In this document: piece by piece, positions 48,667 to 63,671 of the stretch | How the letters are laid out: each line of letters begins with the position of its first letter | Numbering within the stretch: the first letter of the stretch is position 1 | Source: Bdellovibrionales bacterium | GTDB taxonomy: Bacteria; Bdellovibrionota; Bdellovibrionia; Bdellovibrionales; UBA1609 | Assembly (NCBI GenBank): GCA_965261545.1 | Contig: CBDHDF010000007.1 | Coordinates: forward strand, 288,001 to 352,000 | Direction of reading: 5' to 3' | Length of the DNA: 64,000 nt | Notes under the pieces: model-generated | Database searches by the model: none | What the model saw: the letters and a program-made list of their open reading frames with translations, nothing else | Told to the model about the DNA's origin: nothing | Translations under genes and position numbers: made by a program

Positions 48667-49025
48667 ACGGCCCTGTTGTGAACTCTATTGTGAACCTTCG
48701 AACCCATGAAGTTTTATTCTCCCATATTTTTGTTCCCACCACTTTTTTAAAACGCACCCTTGGTCTTATGGGGCAGAAGGCTCTTGAGGAGGGTGCAGCC
48801 CTTATGATTACTCGCTGCGGGAGTATCCATACGCACTTTATGCGTTTTGCAATGGATGCTATTTTTGTGGACAAAGATCTTAAAGTTCAATCTATTTATA
48901 AAAATATAAAACCTTGGAGGTTTGTTTTCGCCGGTCCGACCTCCTATTCGGTCATAGAATTTACCAGTGATTATTTTGACTACAGAAAAATTCGTCTAGG
49001 AGATCAACTCAGTGTGGGAAATTAG
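48663..49025 (+). CDS. DUF192-like protein
   Basis: R..GLMG, SIHT.FMRF.MD.IF.D, KPWR, VIE. Confidence 0.8.
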   Translation: MNGPVVNSIVNLRTHEVLFSHIFVPTTFLKRTLGLMGQKALEEGAALMITRCGSIHTHFMRFAMDAIFVDKDLKVQSIYKNIKPWRFVFAGPTSYSVIEFTSDYFDYRKIRLGDQLSVGN

Positions 49026-50742
49026 AGTCCTCACAGGATCCCAAAGGGGTCAAAAATTCTTACTCTCTCGTGGCACCTACAGGGTGGGGCGCAGCCCTTC
49101 CTGCGAGGTAACTCTTCAGCATTCTCAAGTTTCCAAGGAGCATGCATGTATTCAAGTTTACGGTGACGGTATTGTGATTTTTGATATGAAGTCCAGAAAT
49201 GGAACCTTTGTCAATGGGACTCAAATTCAAAGCTATATCTTAAAGCCTCAAGACCAGGTTGTTATTTATGACATTCATTTGCAAATAGTGCCGGCCTCGG
49301 CTCCCGCCAACCACGATCCAGACTTTGGCCCTACCAATGCTTTCAATGATTTTTCGGAAAATCAGGCAAGTTTTCATCACGCCTCCGCCCATGGCTCCCC
49401 TCGCCCAGGTCCCCATTCTGACTCCCACCCAGGTCCTTCCAATTCCCACCTGGGTTCCCAGCCCGGCCCTTACCCTGGGCCTCATCCTGACTTTCATCCT
49501 GAAGGCTTGGGAGATGAACCTCTCAGTGGAGGGCAAGGTTCAGCAGCAAGTAGCCTCTTGGACAAACTCCATCAGTACATTGAGGAAGTGGCCTTGCCTG
49601 CCATTTACAAGATTCCAGAAATCATGGAAGCCAAATGGGCCATGGGCCTTTTTATTTTGGGTTTTGCCACCATTGTTACATTTCTTTCAGCCGTACCAGC
49701 TCTTCATTTGCTCAAGTCAAATGTAGAAAAAGAAGCTGAAAAAAGAGCGGTGACCATCGCTACAGCGATGGTTCGTGAAAATAGAAACGCCATTGCAACA
49801 CAAGTGCAAACAGCTCTCAGTGTTCAGGCGGCGGCAAATGAAGCTGGTGTCAACAGGGCCCTTATTGTCTCTAACCCCGAGGGAACGATTATGGCGCCGG
49901 CAAGTCTTGCCGGTCAGTATGCTTCGAAAACTCCCTTTATCTATTCGGCCATCAAGGACCCCTCACAAGTGGTGGAGTCCATAGGCGACAACCTCATTGG
50001 GGTTTCTATACCTATAAAGTTTTATAAACCCTCCACGGGAGAGGCTCATATTGTTGCCAATGCCATTCTTATTTACGATATGTCATCCATCGCCATTCAA
50101 AATGCCCAAGTGACAAGCCTTTATATCCAGATATATGCATTGGCTCTTCTCTTTGGTGCCCTTCTTCTTTTTTTCATTTACAAAATGACAAATCACCCCA
50201 TTGAAGGAATCAACAAGCAGTTGGATGAGGTGCTTAGAGCGGGAACTCTTCAAGAAGACGCAACTCATATACAATCCTCTTATAATTTGGCGAGTTTGCA
50301 GCGTATGGTTTCTAATATCAACAGCGCCTTAAGTAGAATGAATCAGGGAGATAGCCCTGAGAATTCCATGGGGATGGAGTATGACAGAAGTCAAGAACTG
50401 ACTCATCTTGTTCAACTGATCGGCTTTGGGGCTATTGGCATCACCTCCCATAATCTCTCAGTGGCCGCTGTCAATAGTGAGTTTCAGGAAAGCACGGGAA
50501 TGAGTGCCGAGGAGTTACTTTACACCCCTGTGGAGAATATGACAGATCAAGCTCTTAAGCTGAGCCTCCAAGATCTCATTGAGCGTGCCCAAAATCCATC
50601 CGATTCCATGGTGAGCAATGAGCTTGAAGTGGCAGGTATCAATTACGAGCTTGTCATTCAGCCCATCTATGGAAAAGCTTCCATTGCTTACTATCTCATT
50701 GTTATGTTTCCCCGCGAGGGTTCTGAAGAGGGTGTGGCATGA
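49012..50742 (+). CDS. FHA-domain membrane protein
   Basis: VGR...VSKEHA...SRNGTFVNG; Pro/His/Gly linker; two TM segments. Confidence 0.85.
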   Translation: MWEIRVLTGSQRGQKFLLSRGTYRVGRSPSCEVTLQHSQVSKEHACIQVYGDGIVIFDMKSRNGTFVNGTQIQSYILKPQDQVVIYDIHLQIVPASAPANHDPDFGPTNAFNDFSENQASFHHASAHGSPRPGPHSDSHPGPSNSHLGSQPGPYPGPHPDFHPEGLGDEPLSGGQGSAASSLLDKLHQYIEEVALPAIYKIPEIMEAKWAMGLFILGFATIVTFLSAVPALHLLKSNVEKEAEKRAVTIATAMVRENRNAIATQVQTALSVQAAANEAGVNRALIVSNPEGTIMAPASLAGQYASKTPFIYSAIKDPSQVVESIGDNLIGVSIPIKFYKPSTGEAHIVANAILIYDMSSIAIQNAQVTSLYIQIYALALLFGALLLFFIYKMTNHPIEGINKQLDEVLRAGTLQEDATHIQSSYNLASLQRMVSNINSALSRMNQGDSPENSMGMEYDRSQELTHLVQLIGFGAIGITSHNLSVAAVNSEFQESTGMSAEELLYTPVENMTDQALKLSLQDLIERAQNPSDSMVSNELEVAGINYELVIQPIYGKASIAYYLIVMFPREGSEEGVA

Positions 50743-51716
50743 GCCAGGCCATTTCGTCCGCCCCTCAACAGGGTCAGAAAAATATTGTTATAAATATTCT
50801 CAGTGGGTCTCAAAAGGGCTCTCGTTTTCAAGCTTGTTTGGTGCTTGGCAAATCTTTGACTGTAGGAAGAGGGGATAGCAACGATATTCAACTTCATGGG
50901 GACCCCAATATCAGCCGGCAACACTTTAAAATATCCCTTGAAGGTGGTGGTCTCTCCATGGAGAGTTTGAATACCAAAAACCCTGTGTGGGCTCAAGGCC
51001 AACCTCTTCAACAAACAAAGATCGAAGGTGTGGCTCACTTTGTGGTCGGGCAAACAGAGCTTGAAATCACTGTGGTTGGAAATCAAAATCATCAAACCTC
51101 TCAGTTTTCCCAACCCCCCCAGCCTCGGAGAATGACTTTACCCCATCAACAAGCCCAAGCCATGCCAGCCTTTTTTCAAAAAAAGAAAAAGAAACAAAAA
51201 GCTCTTTGGGTGATTGTGGCTGTCATGGGTTTATTGCTCTTTTTGGGAGATAAGAAAAAGCCTGTGGAGCCACCTCAACTTCGTACGGAAGAAGATGTGA
51301 ACAATGAGATTGCGACACAAAAGGAAGTTATTAAACAACTCAAAGAAAAGAATATCAAATTGGGAAAATCGACCATCCAATTTAAAACAGCTCAAGCAAG
51401 TTATATCAAGGGATTTAGAGACTACAAGCATGGGCAGTATCAAAGAGCGACCCAGTCCTTCCAAGCTTGCTTAAGTATTTATCCTCCCCATACTCTTTGT
51501 CGAAGGTACTTGGGGTTGGCGCAAAAGCGATTTAGTGAACTTGTACAGTACCACATGGTGCTTGGAAAGAAGTCTTTAGACAAGAAGCAGTACCGTGCAT
51601 GCATGACATCTTTTAACAATGTGATGGTGATGATAAGTGATAAAAGTGATAAGGTATTCATCGAGGCAAGGTCCAATTATGATATTTGTGAATACCATGA
51701 TCGGAAGAGGTTTTGA
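50739..51716 (+). CDS. FHA domain plus TM plus TPR-like protein
   Basis: VGRG...ISRQH; one TM segment; helical C-terminus. Confidence 0.8.
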   Translation: MSQAISSAPQQGQKNIVINILSGSQKGSRFQACLVLGKSLTVGRGDSNDIQLHGDPNISRQHFKISLEGGGLSMESLNTKNPVWAQGQPLQQTKIEGVAHFVVGQTELEITVVGNQNHQTSQFSQPPQPRRMTLPHQQAQAMPAFFQKKKKKQKALWVIVAVMGLLLFLGDKKKPVEPPQLRTEEDVNNEIATQKEVIKQLKEKNIKLGKSTIQFKTAQASYIKGFRDYKHGQYQRATQSFQACLSIYPPHTLCRRYLGLAQKRFSELVQYHMVLGKKSLDKKQYRACMTSFNNVMVMISDKSDKVFIEARSNYDICEYHDRKRF

Positions 51717-51766
51717 CGAGGTCTACGAGGTTCTGAGGAAAGAGATTTTAAGGGAAGAAATTTTAA

Positions 51767-53890
51767 ATGAAGTTAAAGGCAAAACGACAAGGTCAAATGA
51801 TTCACGAAATCGAACTCACTGAGGGTGAGGAGTATATAGTGGGTCGCTCCAGTGCCTGTGATCTATGCCTTAGAGAGTCTTCTAAAATTTCTCGACAACA
51901 TGTCAAAGTCTCTCAAGATGAAAATGGGCGGTGGGTGGCTCATCTTGTCGCTCGCTTTGGAGAGATGATATTTCAAGGTGAAAGTCAGAGCACTATTGTT
52001 CTTGACCAGGCTCTCTCCTTTCACATCTCACCCTATGATATTGAGTTTTCCATGGAACCTTCCCAATTTGGATCTGAGGAGGAGGGCCAAACGGGAGCAG
52101 ATCAACAAGAGGTAGCAGATCAACAAGAGGGACGAGCGGCGCCATCTGTACCTCCTCCCTCCGCCCCTGAGTCTATGATTTCCTGCCCCCCCTCTGTGTC
52201 CCGGACTTCTTCCGTTCCGGGGGCCTTCTTGGCCCCCTTTAAAGGTGAAATGGGTGATAGAGGCGAATTTAGTGATGATATCACCGCAGATGGTGTTTCG
52301 GATGAACTTCAAGCTTGTCTAGAGATTTTGTGGGAGAATGGACCCAGTGACCTTCATTCACTGGACAAAGGAAATCACTGGCTTTTGGGACGGGATAAGT
52401 CTCTCGCCCAGATTATTCTTGCAAAAAAATATATCAGCAAAAAACAATTTGAAATTGTTAAGAAAGGTTGTGAGTTTTACATTATAGATCTTGGAAGCTC
52501 CAATGGCACGTTTTTAAATAACGAAGCCTTATCCCCCCATGAGCCTCATATTCTCAAAAGTTATGACATGATTTCTGTTAAAAATTTAAAAATGCAGTTT
52601 ACTGTAAAGAACTCCTCTCTCATAACGAACCTTCCCGCAGAGGTGAACTTGGAGAGCCTTCCTAGAGGAGAGGAAGTTTTAGCTTCCCACCAAGAGTTGT
52701 CTCGGGGAGCTTCTCAAGGAGTCCATATGCTGGGAGATCAGATACCGGGCCCCGATGAAGTCAGCACCAATATTACTAAGATGGGACGCTTTCATCAAAA
52801 ATTTCCACCACAGAAGAGAAAGAAAGTCATTCGTATTGCCACAGTTTTATTTATACTTTCTATTTTCTATGGGTTGATGTATGATAGCGGTAAAAAAACC
52901 GGACTTTTCATTGGTGAAGAAGAGTCTGGGGCCTCTGGTGGAGCTTCGGGAGAGGATATGAGTCATCTGCCTCCTTCTCAGAAAATGATGATTAAAGACA
53001 CTTTTCGTCTCGCCCGTACACACTACACTCAGGGGAGTTATCAACTTTGTCTCTCTGAGCTTCATAAGTTACACCAACAACTTCCTTTTTACAAAAACTC
53101 AAAAGAAATTGAGTCCTATTGTGAGGAAGGGCGTTTGTCAATGATGAAGCAAAAAGAAAAGGAGCGGCGAGAATTGGCGGCAAAAGAACTCAAAGAAAGA
53201 GTTCACGTTCTTATTGAAGAATGCAAACGCAAGATCAATCCTTACACAACCCTTGCTCAATTGGAACAGGAGACGTGCTTCATAGAGGTTCGTGAGAAAG
53301 ACCCTGCTCATCCAGGGATTGCAAAGCTCATCGAAGATATAAAGATTCGTGAGCAGAAAAGACTTAGTGAAAGGCAAAGGCAAGCTCAATATCAAAGTCG
53401 AGTTCATCAAGGAACTCAGAGTTACAGTGCAGCCAAGCGCACTTATAAGACAAAGTCCTTAACAGAAGCCATAAGGGCTTATGAAAACTACCTAAAGTCT
53501 TCTTTCCCTGACCCTAAAAAACTTAAGGCCAAGGCCACAAGAGAATTGGCTTCTATAAAAAAGAAATTTAAAAAGCGAGTGAGAAAACATATCACCAAAT
53601 GTAAAAAATTTCTCAACCAAAAAGCCTATAAGAGATCCATTCAGTCTTGCGAAAAAGCCACGGCAGAGGATCCTTCAAGCAAGAAGGCTGAGTCTCTACG
53701 AAAGGAGGCCCTTTCTCAGCTAAGAGTCAAAATGAGAAAAATCTACGATGAGTCTGTGTTGGAGGAACAGTTCGGTAATATAGAAGCTGCCAAAATAAAG
53801 TGGAATCAGATTATACAAGAGGATATTTCTAGCGATGAGTACTTTCAGAGAGCCAAAAGAAAATTAACAAAATATGAAGGTGGGATTTAA
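51767..53890 (+). CDS. Double-FHA plus TM plus TPR protein
   Basis: VGRS..ISRQH and LGRD..ISKKQ..DLGSSNGTFLN. Confidence 0.82.
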   Translation: MKLKAKRQGQMIHEIELTEGEEYIVGRSSACDLCLRESSKISRQHVKVSQDENGRWVAHLVARFGEMIFQGESQSTIVLDQALSFHISPYDIEFSMEPSQFGSEEEGQTGADQQEVADQQEGRAAPSVPPPSAPESMISCPPSVSRTSSVPGAFLAPFKGEMGDRGEFSDDITADGVSDELQACLEILWENGPSDLHSLDKGNHWLLGRDKSLAQIILAKKYISKKQFEIVKKGCEFYIIDLGSSNGTFLNNEALSPHEPHILKSYDMISVKNLKMQFTVKNSSLITNLPAEVNLESLPRGEEVLASHQELSRGASQGVHMLGDQIPGPDEVSTNITKMGRFHQKFPPQKRKKVIRIATVLFILSIFYGLMYDSGKKTGLFIGEEESGASGGASGEDMSHLPPSQKMMIKDTFRLARTHYTQGSYQLCLSELHKLHQQLPFYKNSKEIESYCEEGRLSMMKQKEKERRELAAKELKERVHVLIEECKRKINPYTTLAQLEQETCFIEVREKDPAHPGIAKLIEDIKIREQKRLSERQRQAQYQSRVHQGTQSYSAAKRTYKTKSLTEAIRAYENYLKSSFPDPKKLKAKATRELASIKKKFKKRVRKHITKCKKFLNQKAYKRSIQSCEKATAEDPSSKKAESLRKEALSQLRVKMRKIYDESVLEEQFGNIEAAKIKWNQIIQEDISSDEYFQRAKRKLTKYEGGI

Positions 53891-54609: not shown

Positions 54610-55391
54610 GTGAGCACAAGACACAGTTTACGAACAATGATACTATTTACGGTCCCGTTCAAAGTCGTCGCATGGGATGGAGCCTAGGAATCAATCTTTT
54701 AGGACACGAACATAAAGTTTGCTCTTATAACTGTCCCTACTGTGAATTGGGAGAAAGTAAACTTCGCCTGAATCAAGTGGGGCGAACGATCAAATTTCAT
54801 CCCCCCGAGGTTATCAATGATCGATTTGTAAAAAAACTCTCTGATATCCAGCTCTCACCTCATCCCATAGAATCCATATGCAATTCAGGTTATGGTGAAC
54901 CCACCTTGTATCATCCTTTTAAAGAGGTGAGTGAAATGATCTACCATTCACGGAACGAAATTATGGGAAATGCTAAACTCCATCTCCTTACAAATGGAGC
55001 TCATTTTGATCAAAAAAAGGTTCTTGCAAGTCTTCCCTACTATGATTTTATTCATGTAAAGTTTGATGCGGGAGACGATCAAATTTTAAAACAGATCAAT
55101 GCTCCCCTTGTTCGGACCAATATCAACAAAATTCTCCACCAACTCCGAAGTATCGATCATTTAATTCTACAATCTATGTTTGTGACAGGGAGTGTGGACA
55201 ATACCACAAACGCTGCTGTTGAGTCTTGGATGGAGGCTGTGGGCATTGTTCAACCCCAGGTGGTTCATCTTTACACCCTAGATAGAAAGCCCACAGACGC
55301 CACTATTCTCAAGGTGGACGAAGACATCCTCGATATTATTGGAACGAAGCTTCGGCGCAAGACTCAAATAGAGTATCATGTGTTTTACTAA
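54606..55391 (+). CDS. Radical SAM protein
   Basis: YGPV.SRR.G.SLGIN, CSYNCPYC, GEPTL, LTNG; ATGA overlap with the upstream gene. Confidence 0.88.
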   Translation: MSEHKTQFTNNDTIYGPVQSRRMGWSLGINLLGHEHKVCSYNCPYCELGESKLRLNQVGRTIKFHPPEVINDRFVKKLSDIQLSPHPIESICNSGYGEPTLYHPFKEVSEMIYHSRNEIMGNAKLHLLTNGAHFDQKKVLASLPYYDFIHVKFDAGDDQILKQINAPLVRTNINKILHQLRSIDHLILQSMFVTGSVDNTTNAAVESWMEAVGIVQPQVVHLYTLDRKPTDATILKVDEDILDIIGTKLRRKTQIEYHVFY

Positions 55392-55595
55392 AATTCTTGT
55401 AACATTCATGGGGGCGCCTTGCTTCCCCACCCACGCCCATGAATCTTTCTAGGCCCCCACTTCTTTGCACGAAGCAACTCGGTGGACAGCTTCGCTGGTC
55501 TATATAATTGGCCTCTTTTAGTTACTCTGGACTTTTGATGGTATTTTTGTCATGTATGATTCCGATACAATAAAGGATAAAGCAATAACATTATT

Positions 55596-55790
55596 GGAAG
55601 GTGATAAGATGAGTGGCCGTTGAATAGATTGGTAATTTTAATTCCGTGAAGTAACATGGTCTTGAGCTTTGGATCGAACCCACGCATGTACCTGCACTCT
55701 GAGTGTATGGACGTATAGTAAGTTGACCTATTTTCGCTTTAGAATTTATGGCAAAATCCCAAGGCTCTAGTTTTATCACCTTCTTTTTTT
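55596..55790 (+). ncRNA. Candidate IS110 bridge/seek RNA (equivalents at 23611-23810, 25371-25565, 57300-57494 and minus 63261-63455)
   Basis: Hand-folded closing stem GAAGGTGATAA/TTATCACCTTC followed by a U-tract; two internal loops with target-like and donor-like sequences; G-U pairs favour the + strand. Confidence 0.65.
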
Positions 55791-55811
55791 CTAACAGAAA
55801 GGAGGAGTCAT

Positions 55812-57014
55812 GTGGATATTATTTATAGTTCTGTTTGTGGAATAGATGTTCATCAACATATGTTGATGTGTACGATTGTCAAAGTGGAAGACGGTAAGAA
55901 GAAGTTTTTCACAAAAGAGTTCAAGAATTTTCCAAAAAATTTTCCTAGAATGCGCTCTTGGATGAAGCCACATAAGGTTGAGAGAGTTCTTTTTGAGAGC
56001 ACAGGGATTTATTGGAATTCTTTATACGATGATTTGACAGAAAAAGGTTATGAAGTAGATGTTATCAATGCCTTTCATGTCAAAAATATTACTGGTAAAA
56101 AAACTGACGTGTTGGATAGCCAGTGGATTGCAGAGCTTGGTGCTTGTGGTCTTCTAAGAGCTAGCTTCATTCCTCCACGTGAGATTCGTTCTATTAGACT
56201 TTTGGCTCGTTATCGTACAAAAACGATCCGCCAAATATCTTCGGAACAAAATCGTATGTATAAGGTTCTTGAATATTCAGGCATTCGTTTAACCTATGCA
56301 ATGTCTAAAGCTGACTGCGTATCTGGTATGGCCATGATTCGTGCCATAGCTAATGGAGAGAGATCAGTTTCTAAATTGATGTCTCTTGCCAGAGGGTCTT
56401 TACGTCAAAAGACCGAAGAATTTTCTTACGCCCTGTCGGGAAAGATGACGGAAGAAAATCGTTTTGTTCTTCAACGCATTCTTGATCGAATAGATTTTTT
56501 GAAAAAAGAATGCTCTCAAATTGAAGAAGAACTTTTCATTCGTATGAAACCCTATGAAAGGCAGTGGCATCTACTCCAGACTATACCTGGAATTGACGAA
56601 TTAAGTGCAGCGCTTTTGATTGCAGAAATAGGAGGCAATGTGAAGTCTTTTAAAAATAAAGGAAATTTTTGCTCCTGGATGGGGATTTGCCCATCCAATA
56701 ATGAGAGCGCAGGAAAAAAAAAGTCTTCACGAACGAGGAAAGCGAACACATATGTGAAATCGTTGGTATGTGAGATGGCCAATAGTGCTATTAAGACGAA
56801 TTCACAATTCAAAGGCAAATACCAATCACTTGTTATAAGGCGTGGGCACAAGAGATCAGTGATTGCCGTTGGTCACAAAATGATGGGAGTTGTTTATTCA
56901 GTCATAAGTAATGACACCCCCTACAAAGACCCTGGAATTGACTATGAAAAGCTCATGGTGAAAAAAAATGCACCAAGGTGGATTAGAGCGTTAAAAAAGT
57001 ATGATTTCATGTAA
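55812..57014 (+). CDS. IS110-family DEDD recombinase/transposase (400 aa)
   Basis: GIDVH, FESTG.YW, KTD..DS..IA, TIPGI, AEIG, G..P...ESAG; AGGAGG RBS with GTG start. Confidence 0.96.
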   Translation: MDIIYSSVCGIDVHQHMLMCTIVKVEDGKKKFFTKEFKNFPKNFPRMRSWMKPHKVERVLFESTGIYWNSLYDDLTEKGYEVDVINAFHVKNITGKKTDVLDSQWIAELGACGLLRASFIPPREIRSIRLLARYRTKTIRQISSEQNRMYKVLEYSGIRLTYAMSKADCVSGMAMIRAIANGERSVSKLMSLARGSLRQKTEEFSYALSGKMTEENRFVLQRILDRIDFLKKECSQIEEELFIRMKPYERQWHLLQTIPGIDELSAALLIAEIGGNVKSFKNKGNFCSWMGICPSNNESAGKKKSSRTRKANTYVKSLVCEMANSAIKTNSQFKGKYQSLVIRRGHKRSVIAVGHKMMGVVYSVISNDTPYKDPGIDYEKLMVKKNAPRWIRALKKYDFM

Positions 57015-57102
57015 TGTAGGATGATTTAAAAACTCGGACATTTGAAAAAATTCGAAGAACGGATAGTGGATTCGTGCGTCCAAACTACCCCGGAGATTCA
57101 TA

Positions 57103-58811
57103 GTAACATTCATGGGGGCGCCTTGCTTCCCCACCCACGCCCATGAATCTTTCTAGGCCCCCACTTCTTTGCACGAAGCAACTCGGTGGACAGCTTCGCT
57201 GGTCTATATAATTGGCCTCTTTTAGTTACTCTGGACTTTTGATGGTATTTTTGTCATGTATGATTCCGATACAATAAAGGATAAAGCAATAACATTATTG
57301 GAAGGTGATAAGATGAGTGGCCGTTGAATAGATTGGTAATTTTAATTCCGTGAAGTAACATGGTCTTGAGCTTTGGATCGAACCCACGCATGTACCTGCA
57401 CTCTGAGTGTATGGACGTATAGTAAGTTGACCTATTTTCGCTTTAGAATTTATGGCAAAATCCCAAGGCTCTAGTTTTATCACCTTCTTTTTTTCTAACA
57501 GAAAGGAGGAGTCATGTGGATATTATTTATAGTTCTGTTTGTGGAATAGATGTTCATCAACATATGTTGATGTGTACGATTGTCAAAGTGGAAGACGGTA
57601 AGAAGAAGTTTTTCACAAAAGAGTTCAAGAATTTTCCAAAAAATTTTCCTAGAATGCGCTCTTGGATGAAGCCACATAAGGTTGAGAGAGTTCTTTTTGA
57701 GAGCACAGGGATTTATTGGAATTCTTTATACGATGATTTGACAGAAAAAGGTTATGAAGTAGATGTTATCAATGCCTTTCATGTCAAAAATATTACTGGT
57801 AAAAAAACTGACGTGTTGGATAGCCAGTGGATTGCAGAGCTTGGTGCTTGTGGTCTTCTAAGAGCTAGCTTCATTCCTCCACGTGAGATTCGTTCTATTA
57901 GACTTTTGGCTCGTTATCGTACAAAAACGATCCGCCAAATATCTTCGGAACAAAATCGTATGTATAAGGTTCTTGAATATTCAGGCATTCGTTTAACCTA
58001 TGCAATGTCTAAAGCTGACTGCGTATCTGGTATGGCCATGATTCGTGCCATAGCTAATGGAGAGAGATCAGTTTCTAAATTGATGTCTCTTGCCAGAGGG
58101 TCTTTACGTCAAAAGACCGAAGAATTTTCTTACGCCCTGTCGGGAAAGATGACGGAAGAAAATCGTTTTGTTCTTCAACGCATTCTTGATCGAATAGATT
58201 TTTTGAAAAAAGAATGCTCTCAAATTGAAGAAGAACTTTTCATTCGTATGAAACCCTATGAAAGGCAGTGGCATCTACTCCAGACTATACCTGGAATTGA
58301 CGAATTAAGTGCAGCGCTTTTGATTGCAGAAATAGGAGGCAATGTGAAATCTTTTAAAAATAAAGGAAATTTTTGCTCCTGGATGGGGATTTGCCCATCC
58401 AATAATGAGAGCGCAGGAAAAAAAAAGTCTTCACGAACGAGGAAAGCGAACACATATGTGAAATCGTTGGTATGTGAGATGGCCAATAGTGCTATTAAGA
58501 CGAATTCACAATTCAAAGGCAAATACCAATCACTTGTTATAAGGCGTGGGCACAAGAGATCAGTGATTGCCGTTGGTCACAAAATGATGGGAGTTGTTTA
58601 TTCAGTCATAAGTAATGACACCCCCTACAAAGACCCTGGAATTGACTATGAAAAGCTCATGGTGAAAAAAAATGCACCAAGGTGGATTAGAGCGTTAAAA
58701 AAGTATGATTTCATGTAATGTAGGATGATTTAAAAACTCGGACATTTGAAAAAATTCGAAGAACGGATAGTGGATTCGTGCGTCCAAACTACCCCGGAGA
58801 TTCATAGTAAC
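57103..58811 (+). mobile_element. IS110-family element, copy 4 (intact, head-to-tail with copy 3)
   Basis: Junction GATTCATA-GTAAC-ATTCATGG at 57103; right end joined to the IS66 left TIR. Confidence 0.96.
57516..58718 (+). CDS. IS110-family recombinase/transposase
   Basis: Same protein sequence as 55812-57014. Confidence 0.96.
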   Translation: MDIIYSSVCGIDVHQHMLMCTIVKVEDGKKKFFTKEFKNFPKNFPRMRSWMKPHKVERVLFESTGIYWNSLYDDLTEKGYEVDVINAFHVKNITGKKTDVLDSQWIAELGACGLLRASFIPPREIRSIRLLARYRTKTIRQISSEQNRMYKVLEYSGIRLTYAMSKADCVSGMAMIRAIANGERSVSKLMSLARGSLRQKTEEFSYALSGKMTEENRFVLQRILDRIDFLKKECSQIEEELFIRMKPYERQWHLLQTIPGIDELSAALLIAEIGGNVKSFKNKGNFCSWMGICPSNNESAGKKKSSRTRKANTYVKSLVCEMANSAIKTNSQFKGKYQSLVIRRGHKRSVIAVGHKMMGVVYSVISNDTPYKDPGIDYEKLMVKKNAPRWIRALKKYDFM

Positions 58812-60521
58812 TATTCAGGGGGTGCCGCATTAATTCGAACAATTTTTTTAAAAAAAGTATAAAAATTCTTGACAAGTTTTTGAAGCAAACGACCTCTTTC
58901 ATTTGTTCTTTATCGAATATGTTCCTGCATATGGCTTAAACTCTCTGAGAGCCATAGTATTGAAAGATTGTGAAACATAGGTCGCGGGGGGCACTTCTCA
59001 TTCCTTTTGCTTCTTAGAACGAATCCTAGTGCATTTTTTTTAATGAAAAAAAGGCATGTTAATATTTTCATAAGGTAAGTATGAAAATAGAAAATATTGA
59101 CGTGTCTTCAGCCATAAATAAAATCAGGAAGCTTCTTAAGAAAGAGAAGTCCCTTTCTCCCGCTTTTATTGTGGCCATTGAGTTGTTGATCAAAATCATC
59201 ACTATTCTAGTAAATCAAAAAAAATTAAATAGTCAAAACAGTAGTATTGCCCCTTCTCAAGATCCGAATGGCCCTAAAAAGAAACCTAAGGAAGAAACTG
59301 GTAAGAAGCCAGGAGGACAACCCGGACACGAAGGAGCTACTTTAAAACCCGTGGATACTCCAGACAAGGTGGAGTTCATTTCTATTAATAAAGAGGAACT
59401 TCCTCCAGGTGATTACATTTCTTCTGGAGTTGAAAAGCGTCAAGTATTTGAGGTAGACCTTTCTGTGCATGTCACGGAGTATCAAGGAGAAATCCTCGAA
59501 GACCAAGATGGGAATCAGTGGGTTGCAGGTTTTCCAGAAGGAATCAATAACCCAACTCAATATGGCCCTTCTGTGAAAGCTCACTCAGTTTATATGTCCC
59601 AGTTTCAGTTAATCCCTCATCTTCGAGTCGCAAGTTACTTTAATCAATGGGGTCTATCGCTTGCTGGATCTACGGTACACAATTTTAACAAATCTGCCTT
59701 TGAGGCTCTGGAAGCTTTTGAGGAGTGGGCAAAGGAAACTCTTCTGAACTCACCTTTGATTCATGCTGACGAAACTGGAGTGAATGTTAATGGGAAGAGG
59801 CTGTGGTTTCACCTCTTGTCCAATGATACTGTGGTTCTCTATCAGGTGGACGAAAAAAGAGGCGCAGAGGCTATGGATCGCATGGGAATTCTTCCAAAAT
59901 ACACAGGGATTGTTTGTCATGACCATTGGAAACCTTATTATACATATACTTCCTGCATTCATGCCCTTTGCAATGCGCACCATTTAAGGGAGCTTCAAAG
60001 AGCTTGGGAGCAAGATGATCAAAAATGGGCAAAAGAAATGAAGTCTCTTTTAGAGACAATAAACAAAGAGGTGCACGATACGCAGAACCAATGCCTTTCA
60101 CAAGACCGAATTGAATATTACAAAGAGAAATATCGAAATATTCTCTTCGAAGGGGAAAAGGAATCTCCATTAATGGAGAGGACAGAGAAAAAAAAGAAGG
60201 GAAAGGTTAAACAATCCAAATCTAGAAATTTACTAGATCGACTGAGAAACTTTGAAGATGATACCTTGCTATTTATGAAGGACCCCATAGTTCCATTTAC
60301 GAATAATATAGCAGAAAATGATCTGAGAATGACCAAAGTTCAGCAGAAAATATCTGGGTGCTTTCGTTCGTTGATGGGAGCCAAGACATTTTGTAGAAAC
60401 CGAAGCTTTCTCCTGACTTGCCAGAAAAATGGCATAGAACCTAAAGATGCTCTAAATATGCTATTTCAAGGAAAACTTCCCTCATTTATGACTCGAATTC
60501 GCCCACCCCCTGAATAGTTAC
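58807..60521 (+). mobile_element. Complete IS66-family element, single-ORF type (1715 bp)
   Basis: 18-bp perfect TIR GTAACTATTCAGGGGGTG; GTAA termini and 8-bp TSD are IS66 hallmarks. Confidence 0.93.
59081..60517 (+). CDS. IS66-family transposase (TnpC-like)
   Basis: NSS.APS.D, GGQPGH.G, HADETG, HDHW, C.AHHLREL, FTNN.AE.DLR. Confidence 0.94.
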   Translation: MKIENIDVSSAINKIRKLLKKEKSLSPAFIVAIELLIKIITILVNQKKLNSQNSSIAPSQDPNGPKKKPKEETGKKPGGQPGHEGATLKPVDTPDKVEFISINKEELPPGDYISSGVEKRQVFEVDLSVHVTEYQGEILEDQDGNQWVAGFPEGINNPTQYGPSVKAHSVYMSQFQLIPHLRVASYFNQWGLSLAGSTVHNFNKSAFEALEAFEEWAKETLLNSPLIHADETGVNVNGKRLWFHLLSNDTVVLYQVDEKRGAEAMDRMGILPKYTGIVCHDHWKPYYTYTSCIHALCNAHHLRELQRAWEQDDQKWAKEMKSLLETINKEVHDTQNQCLSQDRIEYYKEKYRNILFEGEKESPLMERTEKKKKGKVKQSKSRNLLDRLRNFEDDTLLFMKDPIVPFTNNIAENDLRMTKVQQKISGCFRSLMGAKTFCRNRSFLLTCQKNGIEPKDALNMLFQGKLPSFMTRIRPPPE

Positions 60522-61051
60522 TATGAATCTCCGGGGTAGTTTGGACGCACGAATCCACTATCCGTTCTTCGAATTTTTTCAAATGTCCGAGTTTTTAAAT
60601 CATCCTACATTACATGAAATCATACTTTTTTAACGCTCTAATCCACCTTGGTGCATTTTTTTTCACCATGAGCTTTTCATAGTCAATTCCAGGGTCTTTG
60701 TAGGGGGTGTCATTACTTATGACTGAATAAACAACTCCCATCATTTTGTGACCAACGGCAATCACTGATCTCTTGTGCCCACGCCTTATAACAAGTGATT
60801 GGTATTTGCCTTTGAATTGTGAATTCGTCTTAATAGCACTATTGGCCATCTCACATACCAACGATTTCACATATGTGTTCGCTTTCCTCGTTCGTGAAGA
60901 CTTTTTTTTTCCTGCGCTCTCATTATTGGATGGGCAAATCCCCATCCAGGAGCAAAAATTTCCTTTATTTTTAAAAGACTTCACATTGCCTCCTATTTCT
61001 GCAATCAAAAGCGCTGCACTTAATTCGTCAATTCCAGGTATAGTCTGGAGT

Positions 61052-62468
61052 CAATGCCGTTTCCTTAAGAAAAATCTCTTGAAATTATTAGATAAATCGA
61101 CAAGAATAAGACTTGTTTTATTTTACACCCAACCCTCAACCAAGGAGTAAGTCACATGCAATCCAATATTGATCTCGAAAGCCCCCAAATGACGAGTTCG
61201 CGTCACAGATGACCATTTTATTCTACCAAAACTTGATTCTTCCTTCAAGCCAGAGCACCTTGTCGATCCAGAAAAACAAAAAAGGAATCGAAAATTTAAT
61301 CCTCAAATTTTCTTTTTTACCATTATCTATCTTATTTCAGGAACAAATTACGAAGGCTACCAAATCGCTCTTAAGACGGTATGGACTCATTTTGGTGACC
61401 TGCTTCTCATGCCAGTCAAAAGCAGTCTCAGCAAGATACGTCAAAGTATTTCTTACCTATTTTTCAAAGATATCTTTGAATCTCTGATTACAGACTACGA
61501 ACCATTGAGAAAAACGTTTCATGGTTTTTATATCTATGCCATAGATGGCGACCAATTAGCACTTCCTCGCTCTAAAGATCTTTTAAAGGAGGGTTATTGT
61601 GGGTACCCTTGCCCAAATGAGATGGAAACTCATTTCTTACGTATGTATCTATCTCATGCTTATGACGTTTTATCGGGTGTGACAAAGAATCTTTGCTTTT
61701 CTCCCGCTCTCAACGAAATCGCCAATGCTATTCAAATGATAGGTAGTTTTGAGAGTAATAGCATAACTCTCTACGATAGGCTTTATTTATCTACAGAGAT
61801 TATTAAGGCCCATGCTCAAGCCAGTAACTTCTTTATTGCGCGTTGTAAGCGAGGCTCTACTTTTATCCCCATCGTAAATTTATTTAATGGCCCAGGTTGG
61901 TATTCACAAATGGTTATTGAGGGGGTGGTCATTCATCTCTATAAGTATAAAAACCCAAAGACTGGGGAGTTCTCTGTTTTGGCCACTAATCTTCCGCATG
62001 GCTCCTTGGACAAGAAGGATATGGTTGCTCTTTACTCTCGTCGTTGGGAAATAGAAACGACATTTCGTGATTTTACATCGACAATGAAAATGGAGCAGTG
62101 GCACTCAACAAGCCTTAATGGAATATTGCAAGAGCTGTATTCTTATTTTTGGCTCTTCAATTATACAAAGATTCAAATGAGCATAAATGAGGATGAAGAC
62201 AGTGTGAATCAGTTGGTAAAAAATGACTACAAAAAACCTAACTTTAAACTGATTCTTGATTTCATAATGGATAGCATCCCCCTTTTTGTTGCGGGGCTCT
62301 ATCAGAAATTTAGGAAGCAGATAAAGTTGCTGATGAAGATTTCAATGGAGAAGAGGAGGCACTTCAAAAGAAGCTATGAAAGGTCTATCAAAAGGGCTGG
62401 GAGTTCTTTTAAAAGAAATAGCTTAACGCAGAGGCAGAGGGGTGTGGTGGCTTAAGGAAACGGCATTG
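61052..62468 (+). mobile_element. IS4-family element, copy 2 (1417 bp)
   Basis: 18-bp TIR; 10-bp TSD AGTCTGGAGT at 61042-61051 and 62469-62478. Confidence 0.96.
61193..62455 (+). CDS. IS4-family transposase (frame open from 61193; first ATG only at 61409)
   Basis: KRNRKF N-terminal motif is in frame upstream of the ATG; AIDGD, YDR, RWEIE. Confidence 0.85.
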   Translation, partial: RVRVTDDHFILPKLDSSFKPEHLVDPEKQKRNRKFNPQIFFFTIIYLISGTNYEGYQIALKTVWTHFGDLLLMPVKSSLSKIRQSISYLFFKDIFESLITDYEPLRKTFHGFYIYAIDGDQLALPRSKDLLKEGYCGYPCPNEMETHFLRMYLSHAYDVLSGVTKNLCFSPALNEIANAIQMIGSFESNSITLYDRLYLSTEIIKAHAQASNFFIARCKRGSTFIPIVNLFNGPGWYSQMVIEGVVIHLYKYKNPKTGEFSVLATNLPHGSLDKKDMVALYSRRWEIETTFRDFTSTMKMEQWHSTSLNGILQELYSYFWLFNYTKIQMSINEDEDSVNQLVKNDYKKPNFKLILDFIMDSIPLFVAGLYQKFRKQIKLLMKISMEKRRHFKRSYERSIKRAGSSFKRNSLTQRQRGVVA

Positions 62469-63671
62469 AGTCTGGAGTAGATGCCACTGCCTTTCATAGG
62501 GTTTCATACGAATGAAAAGTTCTTCTTCAATTTGAGAGCATTCTTTTTTCAAAAAATCTATTCGATCAAGAATGCGTTGAAGAACAAAACGATTTTCTTC
62601 CGTCATCTTTCCCGACAGGGCGTAAGAAAATTCTTCGGTCTTTTGACGTAAAGACCCTCTGGCAAGAGACATCAATTTAGAAACTGATCTCTCTCCATTA
62701 GCTATGGCACGAATCATGGCCATACCAGATACGCAGTCAGCTTTAGACATTGCATAGGTTAAACGAATGCCTGAATATTCAAGAACCTTATACATACGAT
62801 TTTGTTCCGAAGATATTTGGCGGATCGTTTTTGTACGATAACGAGCCAAAAGTCTAATAGAACGAATCTCACGTGGAGGAATGAAGCTAGCTCTTAGAAG
62901 ACCACAAGCACCAAGCTCTGCAATCCACTGGCTATCCAACACGTCAGTTTTTTTACCAGTAATATTTTTGACATGAAAGGCATTGATAACATCTACTTCA
63001 TAACCTTTTTCTGTCAAATCATCGTATAAAGAATTCCAATAAATCCCTGTGCTCTCAAAAAGAACTCTCTCAACCTTATGTGGCTTCATCCAAGAGCGCA
63101 TTCTAGGAAAATTTTTTGGAAAATTCTTGAACTCTTTTGTGAAAAACTTCTTCTTACCGTCTTCCACTTTGACAATCGTACACATCAACATATGTTGATG
63201 AACATCTATTCCACAAACAGAACTATAAATAATATCCACATGACTCCTCCTTTCTGTTAGAAAAAAAGAAGGTGATAAAACTAGAGCCTTGGGATTTTGC
63301 CATAAATTCTAAAGCGAAAATAGGTCAACTTACTATACGTCCATACACTCAGAGTGCAGGTACATGCGTGGGTTCGATCCAAAGCTCAAGACCATGTTAC
63401 TTCACGGAATTAAAATTACCAATCTATTCAACGGCCACTCATCTTATCACCTTCCAATAATGTTATTGCTTTATCCTTTATTGTATCGGAATCATACATG
63501 ACAAAAATACCATCAAAAGTCCAGAGTAACTAAAAGAGGCCAATTATATAGACCAGCGAAGCTGTCCACCGAGTTGCTTCGTGCAAAGAAGTGGGGGCCT
63601 AGAAAGATTCATGGGCGTGGGTGGGGAAGCAAGGCGCCCCCATGAATGTTACAAATTCTTTTGATTCCCTT

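Follow-up and report, generated by a model that had tools for sequence, protein, structure and literature searches.

An IS110 element in a Bdellovibrionales genome carries, in its left non-coding end, a segment for which a bridge RNA had been proposed, with a target loop reading the terminus of an IS66 element and a donor loop reading the junction of the IS110 element itself. The locus raises the question of whether such an RNA is encoded here, and which DNA its four guides read. The motifs named in the original prediction are all present in the window (the whole analysed stretch of 64,000 nucleotides): TGAATAG at 55621-27, GTAAC at 55651-55, CCCACGCATGT at 55679-89 and ATAGTAA at 55715-21. 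The matches are short, as had been cautioned, and each is weak alone. Among 20,000 dinucleotide shuffles of this sequence, on either strand, TGAATAG is matched in 3.4%, GTAAC in 30%, ATAGTAA in 3.6% and the three together in 0.04%; for the 9/11 match to the junction the rate is 6.8%, computed for an 11-mer one base off the one noted. Proof therefore rests on relatives and on the insertion sites within the genome. The reading of an IS66 end by the target loop is ordinary, and taken alone it adds a new example of a known habit; the surprising part is a donor match that lies inside the element.

The element and its relatives

The element is a member of the IS110 family (Table 1). Its transposase contains the Pfam domains DEDD_Tnp_IS110 and Transposase_20 with conserved DEDD residues and catalytic serine S299, and the family hallmark is seen at its ends, where terminal repeats and a target duplication are absent and a 2-nt core is shared. 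The left end, which contains the RNA, measures 409 bp and the right end 90 bp. Much of the left-end length is accounted for by a 65-bp repeat (55481-55545) with dozens of copies in the genome. The DDE_Tnp_1 (IS4-type) element inside copy 3 (61049-62469) has 18-bp terminal repeats, a 10-bp duplication and many copies across the genome. More than half of the near-full IS110 copies in the genome are frameshifted near codon 303 (window 56713-56722), at an A run directly after the catalytic serine; relatives of 314 aa in the databases point to the same frameshift, its cause being sequencing error or slippage. Elsewhere in the window (49012-53890, by eye), three consecutive genes with FHA-like N-termini adjoin Tad-pilus-like genes.

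Table 1. Features of the IS110-IS66 array and of the predicted RNA (positions in the window)
Feature	Position	Strand	Remarks
8-bp target duplication AAATTCTT of host IS66	55391-55398	+	partner 63653-63660; brackets whole array
IS66-end terminal GT left outside, then AA core	55399-55402	+
IS110 copy 1	55403-57104	+	first of tandem pair
Left donor arm, terminal 7 nt of IS110 left end	55403-55409	+	not complementary to left donor guide
Left-end hairpin GGGGG...TCCCC	55410-55428	+	position conserved in relatives, sequence varies
W, ACCCACGCC	55429-55437	+	minus strand is predicted partner of left donor guide
Left subterminal repeat ATGAATCT	55439-55446	+	consensus of relatives ATGAAA
65-bp dispersed repeat (passenger) in left end	55481-55545	.
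Predicted bridge RNA, copy 1	55596-55790	+	outer stem, target-binding loop, donor-binding multiloop, T7 tail
Left target guide TGAATAG-AT	55621-55629	+	positions 1-7 equal minus-strand IS66 end; position 8 mismatches core
Right target guide and handshake CAT	55648-55657	+	GT-AA matched, GAA unmatched; clade z 15.7 and 10.7
Left donor guide ACCCACGCA	55678-55686	+	8/9 identical to W (55429-37)
Right donor guide TATAGT-AA and handshake GT	55714-55723	+	equals right end CATAGT-AA with one wobble; z 11.4
IS110 transposase, 400 aa	55812-57014	+	D12/E62/D99/D102 and S299
Right end: subterminal repeat AGATTCAT, right donor arm, tandem-junction AA core	57094-57106	+
IS110 tandem copy 2	57107-58808	+	its RNA at 57300-57494
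IS66 host element	58807-60521	+	IS110 right ends regenerate both termini as GTAAC-TATTCAG
IS110 copy 3, other IS66 end	60520-63648	-	split by DDE_Tnp_1 (IS4-type) insertion

A scan for loci starting from one protein returned none, and a single-sequence nhmmer search found only 3 relatives, weakly. Alignment of the transposase with 45 of 120 homologues among the matches listed led to 159 loci at 32-48% identity. Kin genomes contain full-domain homologues only at ≤35% identity, and 13 of 61, our own included, have any match. Guides were read off the alignment columns at 142 loci, our own element counted once. Element ends were set from shared motifs, blind to the guides (98 left, 62 right; the remainder dropped), and multi-copy elements of two other genomes diverge exactly at ends placed in this way. 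Loci without anchors (44/142) were excluded from the tests of W, the internal window treated below. The null distribution for covariation comes from permuting guides among 70%-identity clusters. The sequences establish the RNA family, the ends, the core, the target, the orientation and the covariation of each guide.

The predicted RNA

The proposed architecture of a target loop followed by a donor loop is borne out by conservation upstream of related transposases and by compensatory stems in relatives. The RNA model matches 138/167 upstream regions of related transposases and 6 downstream regions. In 60 selected relatives, 13 of the 15 stem pairs display two-sided changes, and 94% of stem cells are paired; shuffled alignments give 82%, and controls slid out of register give 30-54%. 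By this covariation the predicted RNA is a true two-loop IS110 bridge-type RNA. Similarity to a diverged relative, on one contig, begins at 55597.

The fold had been drawn by hand. RNAfold recovers its outer stem (55597-55607/55773-55783, followed by T7 at 55784-90) and both stems of loop 2, one of them formed by GAGCTTTGG (55664-72) and CCAAGGCTC (55759-67), with a z of -2.95 and an equally good fold in 1 of 200 shuffles. Loop 1 is absent from this single-sequence prediction and emerges in the consensus of the 60 relatives, with three helices. Of the GGCCGT/ATGGTC closing stem assigned to this loop only 4 bp (55615-18/55658-61) are conserved, so that the handshake bases CAT stay unpaired. Loop 2 contains a third hairpin that the hand fold had missed.

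A search of Rfam with the RNA gave no match near the gathering score. A consensus scan detected no plus-strand promoter in the left end or across the tandem junction, a terminator scan did not score the T7 tail, and no conserved promoter motif stood out beyond the subterminal repeat. Transcription of the predicted RNA, and pairing by its guides, is what we infer from the comparisons described here.

Target recognition

Numbered as in IS621 (PMC11208158; published systems are cited here from the covered parts of each source), the target reads TGAATAG-TT-AC on strand B, the minus strand, opposite to the transposase gene. The handshake CAT of the target loop is identical to the trinucleotide with which the left end begins. 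The genome contains 37 right ends (38 matches, one unrelated and removed), of which 10 are joined to a left end in tandem, 15 to an IS66-type end GTAACTATTCAGG and 12 to sequence elsewhere. The exact target 7-mer is present at 16/27 non-tandem right junctions, in agreement with the proposal that the IS66 terminus is the target. Against the left target guide, the 12 off-target junctions score 7/7 once, 6/7 once, 5/7 once and ≤4/7 nine times. Among these 12 the free site could be reconstructed for 10, and in 9 of them the joined sequence is preceded by AA, which fixes the core as AA (TT on B) in place of the whole GTAAC that had been suggested. IS66 ends, left or right, are occupied in 13/30 cases and truncated ends in 2/3, while two near-cognate end families are occupied in 0/13 and 0/14.

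The GTATCTATTCAG family of ends (14 sites) matches the left target guide at 9/9, yet has no right end attached; the core of the right guide (AA) mismatches there. One truncated copy (C2 559,493) shares its left flank with an end of this family.

In relatives (70% clusters) the right target guide covaries with the left flank at z 15.7 (n=46) and the target-loop handshake reaches z 10.7 (n=47); the donor-loop handshake is weak (z 2.7, n=32). Agreement between the left target guide and the reverse complement of the right flank stands at z 3.6 (n=32), with 17 close pairs for and 8 against out of 31 (p 0.054). The IS621 orientation, in which the left target guide equals the left flank on the gene strand, gives z 0.1 (n=43). 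These permutations indicate that the orientation is reversed clade-wide, extending to the whole clade the claim that the guides read the strand opposite to the gene. Cores in the clade are AA or AG. The left target guide is weak clade-wide and strong within this genome; this element is unusual in leaning on it. The high-copy L045-type and L035-type relatives (G061, G062) behave in the opposite way: they select sites chiefly through the right target guide (CTAA, ACAA), and their left guide matches little.

The shortness of the right target guide does account, as proposed, for the free outer flank. With GT-AA as the last bases of the right end, each insertion restores the IS66 terminus together with the complete target site, so that further copies could insert there and build up head-to-tail arrays. 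According to the covered parts of 10.64898/2026.08.14.744561, insertion normally proceeds without target regeneration.

The outer IS110 junction GTAAC-ATTCATGGGGG resembles an IS66 end and may consequently act as an IS66-type end, which may let IS110-IS66 composites move together. Five such composites are flanked by 8-bp duplications, which are expected with or without mobilisation by the IS66 transposase. Tandem duplications of flank plus element occur at C7 226,760-232,575 and 311,413-314,879, with the right end joined to AA in the upstream flank; they look one-ended and half-matched. A 50-bp miniature element corresponds to the IS110 left-end hairpin region (matching window 55399-55444), has symmetric GTAAC...GTTAC ends and 8-bp target duplications, and is found at C2 ~618,610 (-), C6 ~99,930 (+) and C2 345,410-383,720 (6 copies in a repeat).

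Donor recognition

Of the four guides originally assigned, three hold and the left donor guide was misassigned. The right donor guide covaries with the right end in relatives (z 11.4, n=32), as does the right target guide with its flank; the covariation expected between the left donor guide and the junction is missing. The left donor guide instead reads the same, and in the same orientation, as W, a window of 9 nt that lies some 26 bp within the left end and stops 1-2 nt short of the subterminal repeat ATGAAA. The left end runs in the order core, 7-8 nt, hairpin, W and subterminal repeat, and the right end in the order subterminal repeat, 4 nt and core. From the location of W between the conserved hairpin and the subterminal repeat it follows that both donor guides would pair with the same DNA strand.

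Across 47 clusters at 70% protein identity, guide and W agree at 6.51/9 positions against 4.80 when permuted (z 11.4), and 30/47 agree at ≥7/9. Permutation within classes of core, spacing and GC leaves z 6.9. Among 160 scanned windows (80 offsets on both strands, n=52), the only standouts are offsets -10 (z 10.5) and -11 (z 6.4), the next best reaching 3.4. The rule that locates W is blind to the guides and drops base 5, as a one-base bulge, where the spacing is 11-12; its offsets and bulge were first spotted by eye in these very loci. In nine additional elements, placed by eye, guide and W agree at 9, 7, 6, 6, 6, 5, 5, 5 and 4 of 9 positions (mean 5.9/9, background ~4.8), ISArsp3 being one of those at 6/9; at 4 further loci the RNA match is absent.

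Immediately beyond the terminal arm stands the hairpin, with a mean of 3.96 bp where shuffled sequences give 2.0 ± 0.18, and with at least 4 bp in 30/47. In the minimum-energy DNA fold of this element's own B junction the subterminal repeats pair around the hairpin (-9.5 kcal/mol), and these repeats change together in the clade: ATGAAT/ATTCAT here, TGAAA/TTTCA in most relatives and AGAAA/TTTCT in L218 and L219. Stem mismatches do not discriminate between the strands: 4 favour folding of B and 3 folding of the other. W carries the core in 1/47 and shares 1.9/7 bases with the arm that it would face.

We consider it probable, on these sequence comparisons, that this IS110 clade presents its donor as a folded single strand or cruciform that is exchanged on one strand. 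Strand B would play the part of the top strand of IS621. The target loop would open the IS66 end (TGAATAG-TT-AC on B), and the donor loop would bind two stretches of the same strand, B, the right guide at the right end and the left guide at W. At the end-to-end junction B would fold back, the hairpin closing one side and the subterminal repeats pairing on the other. W would then lie opposite the 7-nt terminal arm and 2-nt core, 9 against 9, replacing the missing second strand and occupying the place of the second (bottom) donor strand of IS621. The donor would be a single-stranded circle or an extruded cruciform; B alone would be cut and exchanged, and the insertion would be finished by replication or repair. 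Since W rarely carries the core, exchange of a second strand would lack homology, and the mismatch between W and the arm together with the missing core would create a ready-made bubble in which only B is exchangeable. We infer both the donor fold and the single-strand exchange.

Pairing of the left donor guide with W might also serve control rather than catalysis: the RNA would bind an antisense transcript, or the left end once integrated, and half-matching by the right donor guide would suffice for transposition. Recombination on half-matches is reported for IS621 in the covered parts of 10.64898/2026.08.31.748434, an antisense RNA is described for ISPpu9, which forms circles even without its hairpin (PMC12288879, covered parts), and in our genome 9/27 non-tandem right junctions match the left target guide at ≤4/7, yet use AA. 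A control function accounts neither for the precise fit of 9 against 9 in the space from hairpin to subterminal repeat nor for the pairing of the two subterminal repeats, and we regard it as unlikely.

The likeness of guide and W could instead reflect descent, through local duplication or shared composition, without any pairing. Both sequences are rich in C, agreement at positions 1, 2 and 8 barely exceeds what is expected, and at 55% clusters (n=19) the restricted permutation is not significant (z 1.2; z 4.8 when free). Positions 4-7, however, covary (0.72-0.87 observed, 0.32-0.57 expected), and among 49 disjoint closest pairs the own guide-W pairing is favoured in 39, the swap in 4, with 6 ties (sign test p 1.6e-8). 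Guide-W mismatches include 17 wobbles (G-U/G-T) with strand B against 6 in reverse, and the offset is single and sharp. Mere descent is very improbable on this evidence. A reversed form of IS621-type donor recognition, in which the left donor guide pairs with the plus-strand terminal left end of a duplex circle, is likewise very improbable. It draws on an already known mechanism (PMC11208158, covered parts) and on the 9/11 match of CCCACGCATGT in this element. In the target-loop register, however, guide and terminal left end agree at 3/9 positions, relatives show no covariation between the two (z -0.3, n=47), and the swapped guide is the better fit in 20 close pairs against 8 (of 47). That 9/11 match, from which the left donor guide had been assigned to the junction, stands three bases off the target-loop register and uses the conserved TG that follows the guide; the near-palindromic left end here permits such a shifted match as well.

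Comparison with known systems

The folded, single-stranded donor may characterise more than the present element. On balance we lean, with little to spare, towards the view that a large IS110 branch (~400-aa transposases, many phyla) consists of RNA-guided recombinases dedicated to a single-stranded donor. A surrogate strand that folds back would be encoded in their left end, in the manner of an attC site programmed by RNA, and transposition would proceed throughout by exchange of one strand.

With IS621 and ISCro4 (PMC11208160, PMC11208158; PDB 8wt6, 9t56; covered parts) the element shares a DEDD RuvC domain and Tnp serine, a left-end RNA with target loop before donor loop, handshake bases, and a 2-nt core that ends in T on the exchanged strand. 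Unlike in those systems, the 400-aa protein is only distantly alike (E 2.7e-15), the sites are read on the strand opposite to the gene, and the target is rebuilt after insertion. The left donor guide here corresponds to a window within the element, on the strand that the right guide also reads, whereas the covered IS621 literature places the two guides on opposite strands. The predicted RNA, by its sequence, is not of the IS621 type in orientation or donor recognition.

The seekRNAs of the IS1111 group (ISEc11, ISKpn4, ISPa11; PMC11187229, covered parts) resemble it in having the guide complementary to the top strand first and in their subterminal repeats; their RNA, however, lies downstream of the gene, and here it lies upstream, in the 409-bp left end. 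ISEc21, a left-end element, has the guide order opposite to that of IS1111 elements (PMC11187229). A left-end RNA with IS1111-type guide order was not found described in the covered literature. IS4321 and IS5075 likewise target the terminal repeats of other transposons, and no report of IS110 insertion at IS66 ends was found in the literature covered. In contrast to those two and to the seekRNA elements of the IS1111 group, as far as covered, a hairpin here precedes the left repeat, which lies ~36 bp in from the end.

ISPpu9 of Pseudomonas putida, as described in the covered parts of PMC12288879, has an AG core on the gene strand, as do many relatives here, a 43-bp left box, a 4-bp hairpin 8 nt from the core, a 16-bp right box and no junction promoter; in those parts its guides are not mapped and the hairpin is left unexplained. 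Motifs from a supplementary table suggest a kinship with our clade. Circles still formed when the ISPpu9 hairpin was mutated, as detected by end-point PCR, and the authors suggest a role for it in integration (PMC12288879). If ISPpu9 shares the design proposed here, the finding argues against a requirement for the hairpin during excision.

Whether bridge recombinases act on single or double strands, and by cutting or copying, is disputed (10.64898/2026.08.31.748434, 10.1101/2025.10.25.684509, covered parts). Single-stranded excision products are described for IS621 (10.64898/2026.08.31.748434), and CazIS110-1 shows transfer and excision of the top strand only (10.1101/2025.10.25.684509). Single-stranded DNA performs ~20-fold worse than double-stranded DNA at the LD-RT junction of CazIS110-1 (10.1101/2025.10.25.684509), the step that a surrogate strand would repair. 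The top-strand-only excision, single-stranded circles and tandem by-products of these two studies resemble what is proposed here; their donor guides, unlike ours, lie on opposite strands, and no folded donor is involved in the parts covered. In ISPpu10 (10.64898/2026.03.19.712850, covered parts) a DNA stem-loop helps the bridge recombinase, as it would here, but that hairpin is an accessory in the target, while ours would sit in the donor and supply the guide-binding strand; the donor guides in that work are also on opposite strands. No report of a folded or single-stranded donor design was found in the text of the literature covered, and the covered parts of PMC11208160, PMC13626964, 10.1101/2025.05.14.653916 and 10.64898/2026.10.21.760802 contain no folded donor.

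If the folded-donor reading is true, a clade with its donor guide wired to a folded single strand would amount to built-in evidence for one-strand copy-and-paste, and the strand question would become testable with few compensatory mutations. It would also explain why the donor guides of such elements escape alignment to the junction, would supply rules for designing with a large and so far unused set of orthologues, and would hint at programmable insertion of single-stranded DNA.

A folded single strand is the recombination site, with one-strand exchange, in integron attC, CTXphi attP(+) and the end hairpins of IS200/IS605. Those sites are recognised by proteins, tyrosine recombinases or HUH enzymes, and are not RNA-guided. 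The donor proposed here would work like integron attC, but would be addressed by RNA.
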